A stretch of DNA of 50,485 nt from a virus (lineage: Duplodnaviria > Caudoviricetes): positions 1 through 50,485 of IMG/VR virus record IMGVR_UViG_3300037467_001076. One strand, 5' to 3'. Positions within the stretch are counted from its first letter, which is position 1, and each line of letters opens with the position of its first letter. A model generated the notes under the pieces. That model had not been told where the DNA came from. It worked only from the letters and a program-made list of their open reading frames with translations, and ran no database searches. The position numbers and the translations under genes were made by a program. Below, piece after piece: positions 12 through 50,259 of the stretch.

Positions 12-1073
12 GAACTTACGTCTGCCCATGCGGTGACGTATGGAAAACAACCTGCTCAACTGCTGGAACGCCCTTAGAGCCGATGGCGCTACAACGTAGC
101 TGGAAACGGCAAGCGTGAACGCTCGAAAAGACATCGGATTGGGTAATCAGCATCCAAGCGCCTAACGGGTAACGCCTATGGCGAAGGTTCAACGACTACG
201 AGGCAGGCTCTTGGCGAGGCATCACCTGGTACTACATGCGAAAGGAGACAACCGACTGGGCGAGATATACCGTTGTGCCGTTTGCGGCAAGGAGATGCGC
301 GGGTTCGTTAACCCAACCCACGTTAAGACGCACGGCATGACCTGCGAGGAGTATCGACTACTCGATCCAGACGCCAAGTTCACGAAGATAACGGCGTGGA
401 ACAAGGGCCTGACGAAAGAGACGTCCGAGAGCATGATGAAGGCGAGTCGGAGTCACCAGACAGCCGAATACCGTGCGAGGTACGAAGCGTCGATGCTTGA
501 GGCGCATGGCGTTCGTCATCCCGCGCAGCATCCCGACATCATGGAACGCATCTTGGACGGCATGAAGCAGGCGAACCTTGAGCGATACGGCGTCGAGAAC
601 TACGGCCAAACCGAGGAGGGACGCCGGCAGACGGCTGAGATCGGTCGACGATCAGTAATGGCGTCGCAAGACCTTTATCGTCGCACAGGCTATCGCACCG
701 TCTACGAGCAGATGTTTCACGAAATGAACTCGCATCTCGTTTGTAACAAGGCGATTGGAACGGGCATAGGCGGCAAGAAGCGGTATGGCACGCCGAAGTT
801 CGTTCCTGATTTCATCGACGAGGAGCGCATGGTCATCTACGAGATTGACGGCTCGTGGCACGAACACGACGACAAGCAGGCGAAGGACGCGATCAAGACA
901 GCGTTCTACGAATCTCGTGGATATACAGTCGTGAGACTGACGAACGAAGAAGTCGCTGCCATGTACCAGGCGTGGCAGTCGGCATAACGCTTCATCTCGC
1001 CAAGATGAAGATATAGTCTAGGCCGACCGACAATCGTCGGTGTTCAAGTATCTCGAAAGAGACGGTATAACCG
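12..1073 (+). mobile_element. Group I self-splicing intron in polA
   Basis: P1: GCAGAU (6-11) pairs with GUCUGC (20-25), giving U.G at the 5' splice site. Core elements P (AACTGCTGGAA 58-68), Q (AATCAGCA 145-152), R (GTTCAACGACTA 187-198) and S (AAGATATAGTC 1008-1018) are present. P3 51-56/202-207; P8 210-218/996-1004 encloses the ORF; terminal G1073. Splicing restores the frame. Confidence 0.93.
256..987 (+). CDS. Intron-encoded homing endonuclease: C2H2 zinc finger, NUMOD-like linker, C-terminal EDxHD/DUF559 (Vsr-like) nuclease
   Basis: CAVC...HVKTH; AWNKGLTKET; PDF...EIDGSWH...D...RGYTVVR. The ORF-track ATG178 lies inside the ribozyme core, and SD AAAGGAG (241-247) points to CTG256. Confidence 0.8.
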   Translation: MGEIYRCAVCGKEMRGFVNPTHVKTHGMTCEEYRLLDPDAKFTKITAWNKGLTKETSESMMKASRSHQTAEYRARYEASMLEAHGVRHPAQHPDIMERILDGMKQANLERYGVENYGQTEEGRRQTAEIGRRSVMASQDLYRRTGYRTVYEQMFHEMNSHLVCNKAIGTGIGGKKRYGTPKFVPDFIDEERMVIYEIDGSWHEHDDKQAKDAIKTAFYESRGYTVVRLTNEEVAAMYQAWQSA

Positions 1074-1992
1074 AGAACCGCGTGTGATCGCTCACTATCT
1101 CTACACGGCCTACGGCGATAACTCGATGCGGCAGATTTACCTCGATGGCGTCGACCTCTACACGACGATGGCGATGCAGACGTTCAATCTGCCGTATGAA
1201 TCGTGTGTCGACAAGGCGATGGACCCGACCGGAACGTTCTCCCCTCGTCTTCTAATGAAGACTGGCGTGTTGGCGTACCTCTACGGCCAGTCGCCCAAGG
1301 CGTTCGCACGCAAGATGAACGTTACGGACGAAGTTGCCGAGAAGTTCTTCGCTGGCATGACGAGCGCGTTCCCAGGACTCGAACCGTTTCGTCGAGGCGT
1401 CCTTCAGGCGATGGCTACGAAGGGAAACATCGCTCACAGCGAGACGTTGTTCGGTCGGAAGCGTCGATTCCCGAAGTATCGCGATAACCGCGTTGAACTC
1501 CGCAGCCTTGAGGCAAACGCGCGATCGTTGAAGTCGGCGTTGTGGAGGCTGAAGCGACAGATCGATGAAGCGAAAACGGAGGCGGAAGTACGTCGAGCTG
1601 AACGCGAGTACGACGAGGTGAAGGCGAAGATCGACCGCATGTGGGAACTGCGCCGAGCCGTGTCTAGCGACGAGCGTCAGGCGATCAATGCCACGATTCA
1701 GGGCGGTGCGGCGGATATTCTGAAGCAGAACATCATCGCCTTGTTCGAGTTGTGCGAGAGTCGCGACTGGAAGTTCGTCGCGTCGATTCACGACGAAGCG
1801 ATGCTCGAAGTACCGATCGAGGACGTAACGCCTGAAGCGATTGCCGAGATTGAGCGCTGCATGACGAGGACCGTCGAGTTGTCAGTCCCGCTCAAGAGCG
1901 ATACCGTGATTCAGCCTCGTTGGGCCGACGAGTACAAGCCGAAGGATTGGTTCGCAAAATCGAAGGAGGACGATGATTCACATGTCGCATGA
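1074..1992 (+). CDS. polA: Family A DNA polymerase, downstream exon
   Basis: Motif B RLLMKTGVLAYLYG, TLFGRKRR, ERQAINATIQGGAAD, motif C SIHDE, VPLK. Confidence 0.95.
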
Positions 1993-3927: not shown

Positions 3928-4947
3928 ACGGCTACAGACGAGCGCTGCGCGTACATCTACGCCTTGTACGAGCCTGATTTTAGCGAGGTTCGGTACGTGG
4001 GGAAGACGACGAACATGAGCCGCAGACTCTCGAACCACCTTGCCCCGTCGTCGCTTGCGAGAAAGACGCATCGAGCGAACTGGATTAAGTCCGTTTTGGC
4101 TCGCGGTGAAGCGATCAAGATGGTCGAAATCGAATGTGTGCCGCCCGAAGGCGATTGGGTCGAGCGCGAGCGTTACTGGATCGCTTACTACCGTTCAATC
4201 GGTCATCGACTCACGAATCATACGGACGGAGGCGAGGGCGTTCCTGGCATCGCTATGTCGCCTGAGACTCGTGAGAAAATCGGTCGTTCTCATCGTGGTC
4301 GGGTCCACTCGCCTGAAATTCGTCGACGGATGAGCGAGTCAAGACGTGGGAAGCGCCATACCGACGAGGCAAAGTCGAAAGTGAGCGCGTTTCAGAAGTG
4401 GTTCGGGAATTTACCCGAGGAACGAGAACGCAGAACTCAGCGAGGGCGCAATCGAGTGGTGTCCAAAGAGACCTGCCGACGAATAAGCGAAGCAAAGACG
4501 GGCTATCGATTCTCGCCTGAAGCAAAGTCGAAGATGAGCGAGTCTGCCAAGCGTCGTCATGAGCGAGAACGACAGCAACGAATCGAAAGCGAAGGGGCGG
4601 AGTCTATAGTTACAAATTATGACAGAGGGAAGGCCGCGGAGAAACGAATCCGCGCCAAACTCGAATCACTCGGCTACTACTGCGTCGAATCGCGCGGCTC
4701 GCATGGCGCAATCGACGTCGTCGGTATCGGCAACAATCGCCTGGTCCTCGTGCAGTCGAAGCGAACGAAGCGACCGACGATCACGCCGGCGATGTATCGC
4801 GAGGACATCGACAAGCTGCGTGAGCTGATCGCCAAGTATGCGCTTCCGCCCGATACGAGCGTCGAGTTGTGGGTGTGGCGTGATCGAATCGGTTTCAGTC
4901 GCTATGTGATCGAGGGCGACGAGTTGGTCGAGAAGGAGGCGATGTGA
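3928..4947 (+). CDS. GIY-YIG endonuclease with NUMOD3 repeats fused to an Hjc-type Holliday junction resolvase-like domain
   Basis: YIYAL...[23 protein letters not shown], repeated [19 protein letters not shown]; C-terminal [31 protein letters not shown]. Start uncertain because the GIY motif lies upstream of TTG3964. Confidence 0.78.
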
Positions 4948-10747: not shown

Positions 10748-11296
10748 ATGCGGATCAACTACGACGACCCGAACGCGGCGAAGGAGATTGCGGCTGAACT
10801 CGGTTATCTAGCGACTCTGTCGATGCCTGTCGATGCGAAGCTGTGCGTTGTAGGCGTTGGGCACGCGCCGACGATGAGCGACGGACTCGGCCCATACGTC
10901 GGAACGCGTCTCAAGGCGATTCTTGGCGATCAAGTCACGGTCATCGGCACGATGGAGGACTGGGTCGGCGCGGGTCGAGTCGGTGAAGTCGCGGTTGCGC
11001 TTCAGGCGGTAGGCGAGGTGTACTGGACGATCGCGGTCGATGCGGCGGTCGGCCAGCAGATTGGACGTCTAGGCGTGTACGACGAGCCGCTTCGTCCAGG
11101 CGCAGGACAGGGCAAGTCGTTAGCGTCGCTGGGCGACGTTTCGATCATGGGCTGTACGGGTCTAAGCGGTCTTGACGTTCTCCTCGATCGGTGCGACCCC
11201 GACATTGTCCGTCGTATGGGCGATGTTGTCGTGGAAGGCATCGTCGATTTCGTCGCTCGGCTCGACGGGATTCGCATGGAGGCGATAAGCGCATGA
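10748..11296 (+). CDS. yyaC: YyaC-family (GPR-like) spore protease
   Basis: VVGVG....SDGLGPYVGT, VIGT, IAVDAAVG, PLRPGAG..K.L..LGDVSI.G match the YyaC pattern GDSLGP.VG / IDA.LG / PLKPGAG / VGD. Confidence 0.8.
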   Translation: MRINYDDPNAAKEIAAELGYLATLSMPVDAKLCVVGVGHAPTMSDGLGPYVGTRLKAILGDQVTVIGTMEDWVGAGRVGEVAVALQAVGEVYWTIAVDAAVGQQIGRLGVYDEPLRPGAGQGKSLASLGDVSIMGCTGLSGLDVLLDRCDPDIVRRMGDVVVEGIVDFVARLDGIRMEAISA

Positions 11297-11528: not shown

Positions 11529-12044
11529 ATGGCTTACGAGCGAGGATATCGAGCGACGGATGACGGCACGATCCTGAATCCTGAAGGACGCGTTTTGGAC
11601 ATTCGCCTACGCGGTAAGCAGAAGTACCCGACGATCAGTTTTCGATGTGGAACGGAGATCACGTGCAGCGGCATGTACGGCATCCCCGCTCATCGATTCG
11701 CCGCCTACTGCTTCTTCGGCGAGGCGATGTTCGCGCCAGGAATCGTCGTACGTCATCTCGACGGCACACGCACCAACTTCGCCCGATCGAACCTTGCGCT
11801 CGGTACGCACTCAGACAACGTGCGTGACATCGATCCTGTGATCCGCAGTCGTGTTGGCCGACAAGCGCGTGCAGCGCAGGGATATCGAGCGAAGAACGCT
11901 ATGTTTTCGGACGAGCAGGTGCGAGATATCCGAAGACGCGTGCAGGGCGGCGAGCGAATGTCCGATGTAGCGAAGGAATTCGGCGTGACTCGTCAATGTA
12001 TCTACTTAATCGCGAGGAGACGTGCTTACACAGATGTCGACTGA
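11529..12044 (+). CDS. HNH homing endonuclease with C-terminal HTH
   Basis: AHRF..Y...G....VVRHLDG..TN....NL..GT.SDN; DVAKEFGVTRQCIY. The frame is open upstream to about 11490. Confidence 0.85.
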   Translation: MAYERGYRATDDGTILNPEGRVLDIRLRGKQKYPTISFRCGTEITCSGMYGIPAHRFAAYCFFGEAMFAPGIVVRHLDGTRTNFARSNLALGTHSDNVRDIDPVIRSRVGRQARAAQGYRAKNAMFSDEQVRDIRRRVQGGERMSDVAKEFGVTRQCIYLIARRRAYTDVD

Positions 12045-20644: not shown

Positions 20645-21364
20645 TCAGGCTGGCATGCTAGAACGCCTACGTTTCGGTACTCCGTTCTCCCGCAGTATCT
20701 GGTAGAGGGTGCCAGCTGTGATGCCGAATTTGCCGATTATATCCCACACGGCGACTCCAGCCTTGTACTCGTCAACAATCTGTGAGATATACGGTCCAAA
20801 GGCATCATCACGTATCTTCTTTTGCTTCCACGTCCTCCCAATGCACTGAAGTTCTATTCCAGCCTCCGCAAGTGCTTTGGAGATGGTAGCAGTACCGACG
20901 CGCAAGGTCTTCTGTATCGCGTGGAATCCGTTTCCCTCACGATACAGTTCGACAATCTTTGGAAACATCTCAGCCATACGAGGAGCGTACCGCTTATGCA
21001 GTCGCTCCGAGCGGCGTGCCCGTTCGTCCTCACTCACTCGGTAGGACGTGCCGTCAACAATATCGACGGCGTTCGTTAAGTGCCAACCCTGCAAACGACC
21101 CCAAGCGATCCACCACATCTCCTGCGTATCGGCGTCTCCGCCGGGCGGAACGACTTCGAGAATTTCAAGATCCGGTTCTAGCCCGTCAGCCAGGAGAGAA
21201 CGAATCCATCGCTCCTTATACGTAGTTGCTTTCGACTTCGACGAGCGAATGTGGTCAGGCAGACGCCGCTTGATGTCTTTTGACTGACCGACGTACCGCC
21301 GCTCTCTCGTGTACGGATGAACTAGCGCATAAATCGCTACTTCGTCGTGATGGATGTGCGTCAC
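20645..21364 (-). CDS. Free-standing GIY-YIG homing endonuclease with C-terminal HTH repeats
   Basis: IYAL..P....RYVGQS....RR...H, WIRSL, E.WWI, LTN; two HTH-like repeats. Probable start GTG21364. Confidence 0.82.
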   Translation of the reverse strand: MTHIHHDEVAIYALVHPYTRERRYVGQSKDIKRRLPDHIRSSKSKATTYKERWIRSLLADGLEPDLEILEVVPPGGDADTQEMWWIAWGRLQGWHLTNAVDIVDGTSYRVSEDERARRSERLHKRYAPRMAEMFPKIVELYREGNGFHAIQKTLRVGTATISKALAEAGIELQCIGRTWKQKKIRDDAFGPYISQIVDEYKAGVAVWDIIGKFGITAGTLYQILRENGVPKRRRSSMPA

Positions 21365-21399
21365 CGTGCTGCCACGCTCCCGCGCTTCGTTTAGAAACG

Positions 21400-21431
21400 A
21401 CAAAGGCGCCTCCCATCGCAGGAGACGCCCG
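21400..21431 (-). terminator. Terminator-like hairpin
   Basis: GGGCGTCTCC-TGCGAT-GGGAGGCGCC-TTT on the minus strand. Confidence 0.5.
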
Positions 21432-21595
21432 TAACGTTTATGGGACGAATGTCCTATTGAAACGAATATTGATCGTGTGATACGATGAATACGCCACACC
21501 GATGTTGCAAGCGGGAGTGTGGCGTATCGAGCGACTTGGCGTTTAGGCGTCAGGTCGCTCTTTGCGTTTAGCCGTGACCCGCACTCACGGCATCG

Positions 21596-30531: not shown

Positions 30532-31176
30532 TTAGGAGGCGGATTCGGACGAAGCGAGTTGTTGTCGTTCTGCGCGACGCCTAGCGCAACGCTGCCGCTG
30601 CGACTCAGCGATCTTTGCGCGAGTTTCGTCTGACATCTTTCGGCCTTTACGCCGTTCAGACAGCAACGCACGCGTTTCCGCAGACGGACGAACTCCAAGC
30701 GAGTTCTTGTTGCCTCGCATCTTTGCTTTCGTCTCCTCGGTATGGCGCTGCCCCTTGTGGGCCTCCGACATGCGTCGCCTCGTCTCGTCCGAGAACTTTT
30801 TTCCTCGCAGATGCGTGTTGCCGCGAAGTGCTTGGCTGATCTTCGCCCGTCCCTCTTCGGTCTGCACGAAATCCCTGACGCCTTCGCCACCACTAGTCGA
30901 GTTGGTAAGCGCGTCTCCGATCAACTGCCGGTAACACGCGATGAAGTATATCTCGCGTTCAATTACCTCTTCGTAGGTTTCAACGCAGTCCAGCTCGATC
31001 ATGATTGGTTTCTGACCGTCACGGAGCATCTTTTTGATCCAGTGGTTCTTGTGCGTGTGACGAGCCAGATTGGACGGCTGAAGATGCCTTCGATATCGGC
31101 GCTCCAAATCGACTGTTTGACCGATATATCGAATGAACCCGTCAGGCTCGGCTAGACCGTAGACATAAAACGGCAA
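30532..31176 (-). CDS. Free-standing GIY-YIG homing endonuclease with NUMOD3 repeats
   Basis: YVYGL...RYIGQT, EREIYFI, LTNSTSGGEG, SDETRRRMSEAHKG repeats; SD GGGAGG + TTG31176. Confidence 0.88.
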   Translation of the reverse strand: MPFYVYGLAEPDGFIRYIGQTVDLERRYRRHLQPSNLARHTHKNHWIKKMLRDGQKPIMIELDCVETYEEVIEREIYFIACYRQLIGDALTNSTSGGEGVRDFVQTEEGRAKISQALRGNTHLRGKKFSDETRRRMSEAHKGQRHTEETKAKMRGNKNSLGVRPSAETRALLSERRKGRKMSDETRAKIAESQRQRCARRRAERQQLASSESAS

Positions 31177-31255
31177 GTAGCGCAACCTCCCGCAAACGCA
31201 CAACGCGAAGAGGAGCGCCGGTTAGACGCTCCCCACGCAATTATTTGGAAATCAA

Positions 31256-37203: not shown

Positions 37204-37247
37204 AGTACGTACGTTCGCTTGTCAGCGTCGTCGTAAGCGACTATAAT
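37204..37247 (+). promoter_or_regulatory. LexA (Cheo/SOS)-box-like site abutting a sigmaA promoter
   Basis: AGTACGTACGTTCG (37204-37217; one mismatch to GAAC-N4-GTTC), then TTGTCA-N17-TATAAT. Confidence 0.65.
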
Positions 37248-37301
37248 TGGAAACAGTTGGAAGACCCCGCACGACGGCGACGACAACGAGGAGGAATCGA
37301 C

Positions 37302-37610
37302 GTGAGCGATCTTCTTGACCAGACGATGGAAGCGCTCAAGGCGACGACCGAACGACCCTTCGACCCCGCCGCCCAAGAACGTCACGCCACGCTTCTCGCC
37401 GCTTCAAACTCGCATTACAACGCTGCCAGCGCTTTCGCAACCGCAGCGTGGCTCTATCGTCGTAACCACGACTACAGCGCCGCCGTACGCATGACGCTCC
37501 ATGCATCGACGCTTTATCGCAAGGCGTTCTGCGAAAATCTCGCAGATGCGATGCTGAATGACGCATCTCGCATGGCGCAGAAATACGGCGTGACGTCTCA
37601 TGCGCGATAA
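37302..37610 (+). CDS. Small all-alpha TPR/SNAP-like protein (102 aa)
   Basis: SD GAGGAGG + GTG; AA..F..AA.LY / AA....HA..LY helical repeats; has its own promoter. Confidence 0.65.
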   Translation: MSDLLDQTMEALKATTERPFDPAAQERHATLLAASNSHYNAASAFATAAWLYRRNHDYSAAVRMTLHASTLYRKAFCENLADAMLNDASRMAQKYGVTSHAR

Positions 37611-37742: not shown

Positions 37743-37892
37743 ATGCGTCGTTTCGTATCGCTTCTAGTCGCCATGATCGCCCTGGTCGCTTTTGCATCGT
37801 TCGCCAGCGCCGAAGGTCGTCCGATCGTTCCGCAAGGACGTGACCTTGTCGTTCCCCAAGAGGGCCGTCCCATCGTTCCTTCGGCGATGTAG
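37743..37892 (+). CDS. Secreted propeptide with three 8-aa repeats (putative signalling peptide precursor)
   Basis: SD AAGGAGGTG; MRRFVSLLVAMIALVAFASFASA | EGRPIVPQ GRDLVVPQ EGRPIVPS AM*. Absent from the ORF track. Confidence 0.75.
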   Translation: MRRFVSLLVAMIALVAFASFASAEGRPIVPQGRDLVVPQEGRPIVPSAM

Positions 37893-43148: not shown

Positions 43149-43252
43149 TGGATATCGTTATATGGATATCGTTTATTGGATCTAGTTAGTCGTAAGAATC
43201 CTTACGTATCCACCGAAAGAATCCTTACGGGTGTAGCGTAAGAATCCTTACG
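43149..43252. repeat. Iteron-like repeats, putative replication origin
   Basis: CG(T/A)AAGAATCCTTACG at 43191, 43214 and 43237 (23-bp period); TGGAT(ATC/CTA)GTT at 43149, 43163 and 43177 (14-bp period); AT-rich flank. Confidence 0.7.
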
Positions 43253-43676
43253 TTGGTTCGCCTTCTCGCTTCCTCCTCACCCGTCTCGCCTTCTCGATGT
43301 TCGCAGGATCAACGTTGCGAACGACCGGCGTCGTATCAGGGTCGATTCTCTTCGGTTCGGCGCCGAATATCGTGACCTGGCACCAATCGGCGATTCGATA
43401 GACGTTGTTGCCGTACGAACCGTTGTTGCGCCTCTCGACGGTTACGATCGGTCTGCCGTTCCATCGAAACTCGCGCATCTTGCGTAGATAGGCGTTTAGA
43501 GTCGGTTCACTCACGCCCAATTGATCGGCTAACTGCTTCTTTGTCGGCCAGCATACGCCTTCCTTGTTCATGTACGACGCCAGAACGAGTAAAAGCGCGA
43601 TACAGTCCGGTCCCAATCTCGCCCCTAATCCCGATCGCCAAAACGATACATAGACCTTTGCGAACACTCCCGACAT
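43248..43676 (-). CDS. HTH-type phage replication initiator
   Basis: LL.LASYMN..G.CWPT..QLA..LGVS..T....L...N.Y; iterons at the 3' end. Confidence 0.75.
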   Translation of the reverse strand: MSGVFAKVYVSFWRSGLGARLGPDCIALLLVLASYMNKEGVCWPTKKQLADQLGVSEPTLNAYLRKMREFRWNGRPIVTVERRNNGSYGNNVYRIADWCQVTIFGAEPKRIDPDTTPVVRNVDPANIEKARRVRRKREGEPT

Positions 43677-45217: not shown

Positions 45218-45246
45218 ACGTTATCACCGTATACGACGATAGTCAA
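45218..45246 (-). promoter_or_regulatory. sigmaA promoter with shared ACGGTGA spacer motif
   Basis: TTGACT ATCGTCGTATACGGTGA TAACGT. Confidence 0.6.
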
Positions 45247-46597: not shown

Positions 46598-46626
46598 TTG
46601 ACTATCGGCGTATACGGTGATACGAT
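46598..46626 (+). promoter_or_regulatory. sigmaA promoter with shared ACGGTGA spacer motif
   Basis: TTGACT ATCGGCGTATACGGTGA TACGAT. Confidence 0.65.
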
Positions 46627-47000: not shown

Positions 47001-47161
47001 TAGCCACGAATGAAGCGATCTAGCCGCGATTTCTTCGAAATCCGCGTAGCCGCAACTTTAACTAGCCGCGATTTTCAATTAGCCGCATTTTCTATTGCTC
47101 CAACGACTAACTACGACTAGCCGCATATTCGAAGGAGGACGATCTAGCCGTGACTAGCCGC
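47001..47161 (+). repeat. Cluster of eight TAGCCGC-like direct repeats
   Basis: Copies at 47001, 47021, 47047, 47063, 47080, 47118, 47145 and 47155. Confidence 0.75.
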
Positions 47162-48272: not shown

Positions 48273-48316
48273 AGAACGCACGTTCGCTTGTTAAGATCGT
48301 ATCAGGACGATATAAT
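48273..48316 (+). promoter_or_regulatory. LexA (Cheo/SOS) box abutting a sigmaA promoter
   Basis: AGAACGCACGTTCG (GAAC-N4-GTTC), then TTGTTA-N17-TATAAT. Confidence 0.75.
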
Positions 48317-48352: not shown

Positions 48353-48991
48353 ATGCCAACGCAGGTTGAGCGCATGGACGAGATGATGCGATTCTTCGGA
48401 TTCGTAAACCCGCGATTCCCCGATCAGGTGTCGGCCAACGCTCTGGCCGCGTTTGTAGGCGTCACCAATCCGACAGCCGTGCGCTGGCAGCGCGGCGAGA
48501 TACGCACACCCGACGAAGTATGCGACCGGCTCGGCATCAACACCGCCTGGATCGTCGGTCGCTCTAGCCGCATGTGGAGCGAGGCGTTCGAGGAGACGCG
48601 CCGCGAGATTCGCGCCAAGTTAGCCAGGCGTGACTGGTCGACTGTGACGAGAACCGCACGAGTCGCGCAGGCGCTCGACATGGCGCGTGCGACGGACTTC
48701 CGTCTGTTTACGTGCGAGTTGGTATCGTCAGTCCTTCGCCTCGACGAGAAGACGATTCGGGCGATCGGCGCAGGAACGACGTCGGTCAACGACGGGACGA
48801 TCAAGCGCCTGAGCGAGTGGCTGGACGTGCCGATCGCCTGGTTCAAGTCAGGCGATCCGAAGACACTGCGAGACGTGGATTGGACGCATCCAATCGAGAA
48901 GGCGATCAAGTCGGGACTGAGCGCCGGCGACGTCGAGCGACTGATCGAACGGTTCGTGAAGGAGCGCAGAGACGTCGAGTCGCTGATGTGA
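48353..48991 (+). CDS. Double XRE-HTH transcriptional regulator
   Basis: ALAAFVGVT..TA.RW.RG...LGIN.AWI; second unit L.L...TI..I..G......I.RL..WLDVP..WF..G. Confidence 0.75.
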   Translation: MPTQVERMDEMMRFFGFVNPRFPDQVSANALAAFVGVTNPTAVRWQRGEIRTPDEVCDRLGINTAWIVGRSSRMWSEAFEETRREIRAKLARRDWSTVTRTARVAQALDMARATDFRLFTCELVSSVLRLDEKTIRAIGAGTTSVNDGTIKRLSEWLDVPIAWFKSGDPKTLRDVDWTHPIEKAIKSGLSAGDVERLIERFVKERRDVESLM

Positions 48992-49047
48992 CGCCAATCG
49001 ACCTATACACCATGTCAACGTATCTAGCCGCAATCATACGTTATAGC

Positions 49048-49092
49048 AAACGACAAGACCGCTTGGAGCGTTTCCAAGCGGTCTTCGTCGTT
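49048..49092. terminator. Bidirectional terminator
   Basis: AAGACCGCTTGGA-GCGTT-TCCAAGCGGTCTT. Confidence 0.7.
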
Positions 49093-49109
49093 ATGGTCGG
49101 TTCAGGCGA

Positions 49110-49235
49110 CTAGCCCTTGACGTTAGCCGTGAAGCACGCGTCGGGACCGCCTCCGCTACTGCAAGCGGAGACGATCGGAGCGGCGATCGCGGAGACGACG
49201 AGAAGCACGAGAGCGACGATCGAAACCTTGTGCAT
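49110..49235 (-). CDS. Secreted 41-aa propeptide with two Cys (putative RRNPP-type signal precursor)
   Basis: SD AAGGGGG; MHKVSIVALVLLVVSAIAAPIVSA-CSSGGGPDACFTANVKG*; starts 12 nt after the TPR gene stop. Confidence 0.72.
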   Translation of the reverse strand: MHKVSIVALVLLVVSAIAAPIVSACSSGGGPDACFTANVKG

Positions 49236-49247
49236 CGAATTACCCCC

Positions 49248-50144
49248 TTATTCGATATTCGGCACGCCTCGCTTTACCATGTCGAGTTGATCTCGAAGGT
49301 ACGGCGAGCCGTTGTCGCAGAGCAGCATGGCGAGCTGGTGGGCGAGCCAGAACGAGTCGATGTCGCCGATCGCCTTGTACGCACAGCAGCGATACAGGGC
49401 GATCTCACCCATTGTAATCGTCTCCTTCAACCCTGCCGCGAGCCTGTACGCCTGGTCGAGCGGAGCGCGAGCGTCGTTGACGCGCCCTTCGTAAATGGCG
49501 ATGACGCCACGAAGGAACTTCGTCCAGCACTCGACAGACGACGCACCTTCGCCCTTTTCGGCTAAGTCAGCCCAGCGCCTGGCGTCGTCAAGATAGCCGA
49601 GCCGAGCGCAGCATAGACCCACATGAGCCGCTGCTGATCGTTTATAGCCGTCATAGCCGCTCTTTGGGTCGCACACCGCAAGAACGCTCATCGTTTCGAT
49701 CGCCTCGTCGAGACGGCCTGTCGCCATGAGGATTCGACCAACGTTGAACGTGTGGAGCGCATGAAACGTGGGGAAATCGTAGAGAGCGAAAAAGCGATCA
49801 GCCACGACCTTGACGCGCTCCATCTCGCCGATGGCACCGAGCATGTACGAGAGATACGAGGCACGAACGATGGCCTTCGCGTGTGTCTCGACGTCCTCGA
49901 CGGGACACTCGGTTACGGCGAGAATCGCCTTCAACGCCTCGTCGCTTCGGCTCGGATACTCGAAAGCCGTGACATGTGCGTTCCAGTACGTGATGACCGT
50001 CGAGGGAGCGTCGCTGACCGTCAGCTCGTCGTCGATGATGCGACGGGCGAGCGGTAGATCACGCTTGGACACACGCATGGCTTCGGTTAGTCGTTCGACA
50101 ATCGCATGGTACGATGCCGGAACCGGCGGCGATGCGTGAGCCAT
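49248..50144 (-). CDS. TPR-repeat protein (putative RRNPP-like peptide receptor, no evident HTH)
   Basis: N.G.I....G..DEA, VG.C...LG..DDA..W, G.I....G....A...L.QA TPR consensus; SD GAGGAGG + ATG50144. Confidence 0.75.
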   Translation of the reverse strand: MAHASPPVPASYHAIVERLTEAMRVSKRDLPLARRIIDDELTVSDAPSTVITYWNAHVTAFEYPSRSDEALKAILAVTECPVEDVETHAKAIVRASYLSYMLGAIGEMERVKVVADRFFALYDFPTFHALHTFNVGRILMATGRLDEAIETMSVLAVCDPKSGYDGYKRSAAAHVGLCCARLGYLDDARRWADLAEKGEGASSVECWTKFLRGVIAIYEGRVNDARAPLDQAYRLAAGLKETITMGEIALYRCCAYKAIGDIDSFWLAHQLAMLLCDNGSPYLRDQLDMVKRGVPNIE

Positions 50145-50229
50145 AGCGACTCCTCCTCGATTCAGGTCGATGGTTGCGTGTTGCTTCGTGTATGATTCGT
50201 TGGAACAGCGAGACATTCCTGCTAGGTCG

Positions 50230-50259
50230 AGTGTATCACCGTGTACGACGATTTGTCAA
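50230..50259 (-). promoter_or_regulatory. sigmaA promoter with shared ACGGTGA spacer motif
   Basis: TTGACA AATCGTCGTACACGGTGA TACACT. Confidence 0.6.

Follow-up and report, generated by a model that had tools for sequence, protein, structure and literature searches.

The locus studied here raises the question of whether a tailed phage can read a secreted peptide with a TPR receptor devoid of HTH, and on which partner such a receptor would act. The locus lies near one end of the window (the whole stretch of DNA analyzed, 50,485 bases), which is one phage contig with 57.8% GC.

Phage Contig and Probable Host

The contig encodes terminase, portal, tail, endolysin, holin, PolA, ribonucleotide reductase, ThyX, PhoH and a YyaC-type spore protease. 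It is an incomplete tailed-phage genome, since its ends do not overlap and PolA is represented by its C-terminal part only. The terminase was closest to those of Paenibacillus and Bacillus phages (about 30% identity), and the named hosts of the 10 spore-protease matches, as well as those of the listed endolysin matches, were all Bacillota. These three lines point to a host that is probably a spore-forming member of the Bacillota. Searches of 50 ORFs with Pfam and PHROGs, and of 29 further ORFs with PHROGs (one of them a repeat of the endolysin ORF), yielded no integrase or partition gene. For this reason, and because the contig is incomplete, the phage is only a candidate temperate phage. The metagenome runs holding the locus came from soil and rhizosphere.

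Several other features of the contig were recorded. The phage-borne spore protease (DUF1256; 10748–11296, +) is 23–31% identical to other phage copies. Five homing-endonuclease-like genes were detected (178–987, 3964–4947, 11529–12044, 20645–21499, 30532–31203), the first of which, directly before the C-terminal fragment of PolA, may be intron-borne. Three 17-nt repeats with a 23-nt spacing (43191–43253), just downstream of a replication-initiator-like gene, are origin-like. Also, CTAGCCGC is present in 7 copies in the window against 1.4 expected (0 of 100 shuffles), at sites including 47020–47161, 48564 and 49024; four of these copies cluster with further near-copies in an AT-richer gap and are possible iterons or binding sites.

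Organization of the Locus

The sequence-only reading had described a TPR gene, a 12-nt gap, a 41-aa ORF, the promoters and a convergent HTH gene, and all of these coordinates were borne out by the sequence (Table 1). The TPR ORF starts at an ATG behind the ribosome site GAGGAGGAG, and the peptide gene, which has its own ribosome site, is translationally coupled to this cytoplasmic TPR protein's gene. The bidirectional terminator proposed between the convergent genes is likely. The hairpin showed folding z-scores of −6.0 and −6.6 on the two strands, none of 200 shuffles being equally stable, but it was not in the terminator-scan output because its T tails are poor. Run X7 retains a stretch matching the hairpin, and a left arm resembling that of the hairpin occurs in run X5. 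No aimX-like ORF was evident in the 118-nt spacer between the peptide and regulator genes. Since this spacer contains no ribosome site and is largely absent from a contig of run X5, in which the segment 48995–49047 is missing, no AimX-like relay is evident.

Table 1. Positions of the features of the locus and of related sites in the window.
Feature	Position	Strand	Basis or remark
Promoter of the TPR-peptide operon, sigma-A-type	50230–50259	−	10/12 consensus, TG extension
Imperfect 18-bp palindrome, candidate operator between −35 and −10	50235–50252		Pattern match
TPR gene (298 aa), HTH-less, Rap-like predicted fold, candidate peptide receptor	49248–50144	−	
Ribosome site of the peptide gene, overlapping the stop codon of the TPR gene	49242–49249	−	Sequence
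Propeptide gene (41 aa)	49110–49235	−	Alleles in runs X2, X3, X4, X7
Hairpin between the convergent genes, likely two-way terminator	about 49047–49095		Folding z-scores
Regulator gene (212 aa), two XRE-like HTH units, variable 40-aa C-terminal part	48353–48991	+	
Promoter of the HTH gene, ATCGT-N6-ACGAT palindrome in the spacer	48288–48316	+	10/12 consensus
Presumed SOS box (LexA/Cheo-type), 2 nt before −35 of the HTH gene	48274–48285		GAAC-N4-GTTC
Second copy of the 18-bp palindrome, promoter of rightward small early genes	46604–46621		Pattern match
Third copy of the 18-bp palindrome	45223–45240		Promoter of leftward genes leading to the replication-initiator-like gene

The TPR Protein

The AlphaFold2 model of the TPR protein (pLDDT 84.8) contains 15 helices forming about seven TPRs. 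No HTH was detected in this model or by Pfam, nor in the scanned relatives of about 300 aa. Among solved structures, the top Foldseek match was the Rap of phage phi105 with its peptide (PDB 8rte; TM 0.66, E 3e-4), with LGN, RappLS20 (rank 4), MalT and RapI (rank 11) ranking below. TPR folds are generic, LGN/GPSM2 and MalT scoring nearly as high as the phi105 Rap, and identity with the Rap structures was 11–14%. A family profile of 15 members (alignment A5) retrieved designed TPRs in first rank, RappLS20 (6t3h) with E 5e-8, and RapI and RapF lower. Against RappLS20 this profile gave a probability of 94 (E 1.4e-7; 115 columns aligned, 20% identity), versus 35 against a phage AimR. AimR, Rap and NprR had been put forward for comparison with this protein. 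A Rap-like fold emerged, whereas the AimR match was weak and neither AimR nor NprR was among the Foldseek matches listed.

Domain searches gave a Pfam TPR_2 match just under the family cut-off (E 6.6e-6), and two relatives (P0017 and P0019) pass the TPR_12 cut-off. No Rap family match was obtained in Pfam, NCBIfam or PHROGs. Given this result and the 115 columns at 20% identity to RappLS20, the protein was rejected as a Rap by sequence. The model shows one short helix followed by 14 others over 298 aa, whereas RappLS20 has 3 + 14 helices over 368 aa. Because of this difference (15 helices versus 17), the three-helix effector bundle of the Raps is probably missing from the TPR protein, although the TPR register of the model is ambiguous.

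The TPR family is small and unannotated, with five close homologues besides the window's own protein. Out of 51 profile hits, 11 distant relatives of 212–332 aa (P0017–P0026 and P0036) entered alignment A5; the rest, for the most part long generic TPR proteins, stayed out of it. The distant relatives in A5 keep a Cys at positions 166 (9 of 15) and 253 (10 of 15) of the window's TPR protein; a thiol or metal link from these residues to a peptide Cys would be speculation.

The Peptide and its Alleles

The 41-aa propeptide comprises a hydrophobic signal region (residues 4–19) followed by a C25-x8-C34 motif with the core GGPDAC and a tail of 7 aa. According to hydropathy and motif reading, residues 22–25 are V-S-A-C, with a Pro at −5 and Val-x-Ala at −3/−1. 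V-S-A-C corresponds to the lipobox pattern, and a cut at A24|C25 is compatible with both SPase I and SPase II, the Pro at −5 favoring SPase I. Judging from these motifs, cleavage at A24|C25 and export of the peptide are likely. Lipidation is possible, but an ordinary SPase I site appears to be the better fit because of the Pro at −5. The mature peptide would contain 17 aa.

An identical peptide sequence was called on 2 contigs, and contigs in runs X2 and X4 carry an unchanged peptide over the parts covered. Two divergent alleles were found, each on one contig. The allele of run X3, on a 163-base contig, shows 19 differences, of which 12 were listed (10 of them in codons 1–18) and 7, near the contig ends, were not. 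The changes in codons 1–18 are six silent third-position changes together with ATG to TTG, H2R, V10L and A18T. None of the listed changes falls in codons 19–25, which include the first Cys, and despite the loss of one base and the gain of another at 49155/49158 the frame is preserved; codons 26–35 of this allele are unreadable, and a stop is possible there. In run X7, a 1204-base contig matches 49055–49114 and the same hairpin follows. Read by hand over 30 letters back from the stop, this allele ends in T-N-A-S-G-G-P-D-P-C-stop, and the codon before T-N-A-S ends in GC (Cys, Ser, Arg or Gly); its mature peptide would count about 11 aa. Because of the silent and in-frame changes in X3 and of the X7 allele, the peptide frame appears to be conserved and under constraint.

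Since the X7 allele ends in GGPDPC-stop, the kept element is GGPDxC with the second Cys, and not the FTANVKG tail. GGPDPC forms the C-terminal hexapeptide in X7, whereas GGPDAC is internal in the window's peptide. The hexapeptide TANVKG, suggested earlier as a possible signal, is absent from the X7 allele and was dropped as a shared signal. A disulfide ring is possible, but a cytoplasmic receptor is located in a reducing space; as the active form such a ring appears doubtful, and a linear GGPDxC hexapeptide is as economical. Re-import of the mature peptide and its binding in the TPR groove are predicted. We found no RRNPP system with a disulfide peptide in the literature consulted, mostly non-subscription papers, and the word "cysteine" is absent from the main text of PMC10075063 and PMC9765709.

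A second ORF resembling a secreted propeptide was observed elsewhere in the window (37743–37892, +; 49 aa), with a strong ribosome site and a Sec-type signal. It contains three near-repeats (EGRPIVP, GRDLVVP, EGRPIVP), like tandem Phr pheromones. No TPR-family gene adjoins it; perhaps it is an orphan signal read by receptors of the host or of phages.

The HTH Regulator, Its Promoter and the Palindromes

Two HTH units had been read in the regulator. Atlas models align XRE domains to both halves of the protein, but only the second HTH has a Pfam match, below the cut-off (E 0.0085). The PHROG matches, among them phrog_8 over residues 29–173 (E 3e-5), are repressors and weak, and comparison of the HTH profile with Rco was not significant (probability 0.6).

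The HTH gene had also been described as driven by an SOS box. Its promoter is preceded by GAAC-N4-GTTC, which corresponds to the consensus of such a box. The window contains one exact copy against a chance expectation of 1.7. By itself, the motif is thus not significant, but its position against the −35 is. Boxes with at most one mismatch lie 2 nt before −35 in 2 of 9 promoter-like sites, chance being about 0.002 per promoter, although these two promoters are 32/48 identical and thus not independent. The other one, with its SOS-like box at the same place, belongs to a helical 102-aa ORF with a weak DUF2225 match (E 0.008), both lying in the region 37205–37610 (+) upstream of the 49-aa peptide. 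Because DNA damage would raise the HTH protein, an SOS-box promoter fits an immunity repressor badly, and this is the main unexplained point of the locus.

The 18-bp palindrome is present in three copies in the window, each right behind TTGAC in the promoters at 45246, 46598 and 50259, with 0, 0 and 1 mismatches. Controls contained 0.1 sites per sequence at up to two mismatches, a comparison that flatters the pattern, as it was derived from the same three sites. The spacer of the HTH promoter contains the same half-sites at another spacing. The place of the palindromes between −35 and −10 would suit a repressor, and the HTH protein may bind these candidate operators. In run X4, one contig follows the window to the point where the −35 of the HTH promoter begins, after which it has a different 17-nt spacer and again TATAAT; the candidate operator may vary with the HTH allele.

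Linkage, Covariation and Predicted Complex

Four of the five close TPR homologues and an HTH homologue have equal-sized longest contigs (22656, 15021, 2968 and 3464 bases); the remaining TPR homologue is a fragment, located on a contig of 1607 bases. Among seven HTH homologues, four match in this way, two are on contigs shorter than 1.4 kb and one (4714) has no listed TPR partner. The TPR and HTH genes are thus likely to be paired on four other contigs, as deduced from equal contig sizes only. With these size-matched contigs treated as pairs, HTH residues 173–212 were 92% identical where the TPR proteins were 99% identical. In the nine other pairs, out of 10, they were 25–45% identical; residues 74–172 were 72–93% identical across pairs. 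The first HTH (residues 1–73) varies independently, the window being an outlier (58–60% versus 95–99% among the others). The last 40 residues of the HTH protein therefore track the TPR allele. Such covariation would fit a cassette made of TPR, peptide and HTH tail, but physical hitch-hiking explains it too, because the 3′ end of the HTH gene abuts this cassette. The HTH tail of one allele has a faint SinI-type match (E 0.035).

ESMFold2 scored the TPR-HTH complex at 0.48, versus 0.00 for the best of 3 controls; runs agreed in at least 85% of contacts and partner pLDDT was at least 81. The mark was reached by 116 of 157 solved pairs and 2 of 215 mismatched pairs, but scores of 0.60 or under comprised only 18 solved pairs and both mismatches, so that the predicted complex weakly supports direct binding. 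The sequence-only reading had proposed a split system in which the TPR protein binds the HTH protein. Linkage, covariation and the predicted complex all speak for it, and we consider direct binding rather probable; the novelty that this proposal implied did not survive, as Rap and Rco of pLS20 interact in this way.

Comparison with Known Systems

The RRNPP signature of Bernard et al. (PMC10075063) has five criteria, including a receptor of 250–500 aa, TPRs, an adjacent propeptide gene and a Sec/SPI signal. According to PMC9765709, no RRNPPA members other than Raps lack an HTH. The present receptor has 298 aa, a TPR solenoid supported by model and fold matches, no HTH, as in Raps, and a directly adjacent small propeptide gene (41 aa, 12-nt gap, ribosome site). 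The RRNPP-type layout first seen in the sequence is supported. The locus agrees with every RRNPP criterion that could be tested, but it is not an arbitrium and, by sequence, its receptor is not a Rap. The TPR and propeptide genes very probably form a peptide-receptor cassette.

The closest counterpart is RappLS20-PhrpLS20-RcopLS20 of a B. subtilis plasmid, where the same three elements occur, an HTH-less TPR gene, a propeptide gene and a convergent XRE gene. The convergence of the rap-phr cassette with rco is reported in PMC8014075, and the coordinates are 75–1181 (+) for rap and 1483–1968 (−) for rco. In pLS20, according to PMC7430634, Rap binds Rco directly and the peptide releases Rco. The receptors are alike in profile and fold, and the direct binding known for pLS20 is predicted here. 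Thus, an HTH-less receptor acting on a separate repressor was rejected as a new logic. The present locus differs in being carried by a phage and not by a conjugative plasmid, and its regulator has two HTH units and no detectable homology to Rco. Phr* is the linear C-terminal pentapeptide QKGMY, whereas the element here is GGPDxC, which is internal in one allele but forms the C-terminus of another. What differs from pLS20 is the phage setting, the distant Rap-like receptor apparently without three-helix domain, the Cys peptide and the SOS-box promoter.

In extended arbitrium (AimR-AimP-AimX-AimC-AimL), too, a convergent HTH gene lies after the receptor and peptide genes of the phage. According to Kabel et al. 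(10.1101/2025.11.23.689978), such a gene, controlled via AimX, is present in about 80% of AimR systems. However, AimR binds DNA and acts via the small antirepressor AimX, whereas the receptor here is HTH-less and no AimX-like ORF is evident; the regulator has 212 aa versus 80–140 for AimC, and no divergent cro-like gene faces it. An arbitrium (AimR-AimP-AimX) was rejected on the basis of the HTH-less receptor, the AimR probability of 35 and the lack of an aimX-like ORF. In Bacillus phage 268TH002, a distant terminase relative (29%), aimR lies beside two small HTH genes in the replication region (L040 13153–15013).

Phage Rap-Phr systems, such as those of phi105 and phi3T, are likewise phage-encoded and HTH-less, the phi105 Rap being the best fold match. 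They comprise full-length Raps predicted to target host regulators, whereas the protein here is shorter. The Rap of phi3T has 379 aa and is 48% identical to RapC (PMC8027211).

Proposed Switch and Alternatives

We hypothesize that the locus is a phage-borne switch of the Rap-Phr-Rco type, a reading that we regard, with its anti-repressor cycle, as evenly balanced between true and false. Upon infection, TPR protein and peptide would be made from the early promoter. Free TPR protein would prevent the HTH protein from occupying the 18-bp palindromes of early promoters, that of the TPR gene included, so that lytic genes would stay on. The propeptide would be cut at A24|C25, giving a Cys-first peptide with the core GGPDxC. 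As it accumulates, this peptide would be re-imported, fill the TPR groove and free the HTH protein, which would shut down early transcription. The C-terminal 40 residues of the HTH protein would be the likely TPR-binding and oligomerizing part.

The SOS box upstream of the HTH gene, 2 nt from its −35, would be better accommodated if the sign were opposite. In such a split AimR-like AND gate, DNA damage would induce the HTH protein, a pro-lytic regulator that either requires peptide-free TPR protein for its activity or is sequestered by peptide-bound TPR protein, and induction would need both damage and few neighbors. Direct binding is assumed here as well, and the covariation of the HTH C-terminus and, weakly, the predicted complex agree with it. 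We hold this AND gate to be rather unlikely, as the palindromes occupy a repressor position, the weak PHROG matches are to repressors, and in pLS20 and extended arbitrium the convergent partner is a repressor too. The boldest reading, a new family of phage communication systems, seems unlikely. In it, a bare TPR receptor devoid of both HTH and three-helix effector would read a disulfide-closed peptide ring and, through direct binding, gate a DNA-damage-induced regulator, while phages would exchange receptor, peptide and the C-terminal part of the regulator as specificity cassettes; the ligand of this RRNPP-type receptor would then be cyclic and redox-sensitive.

The HTH gene could also be a mere neighbor of an ordinary phage Rap-Phr-like cassette aimed at a sporulation or competence regulator of the host. 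The closest fold is indeed a phage Rap, phage Rap-Phr systems are predicted to act on Spo0F/ComA (PMC8027211), and this phage carries a YyaC-type spore protease. Yet the three-helix domain through which Raps reach their targets seems absent, and the HTH linkage, the covariation and the complex score would be left aside, which makes this explanation quite improbable. Very improbable in our opinion is a small ORF that encodes no diffusible TPR ligand but a lipopeptide (SPase II, lipid on C25) or a membrane peptide active at the envelope, for example for superinfection exclusion. V-S-A-C fits a lipobox, and the listed changes of the X3 allele leave it untouched, but Pro at −5 and Val-x-Ala fit SPase I, the mature part is short in both alleles (17 and about 11 aa), the kept element is the distal GGPDxC, and the gene is coupled to that of a cytoplasmic TPR protein.

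If the Rap-Phr-Rco-type switch is true, phages would possess a third type of link between a peptide census and their genetic switch, besides AimR-AimX and host-directed Rap-Phr, namely the pLS20 anti-repressor logic with an unrelated short receptor. Also, a Cys-bearing and possibly cyclic ligand would widen the RRNPP signal chemistry. In the allele series, at least four types of TPR protein, each apparently accompanied by an HTH tail of its own, and three forms of the peptide can be told apart, so that specificity is directly testable.
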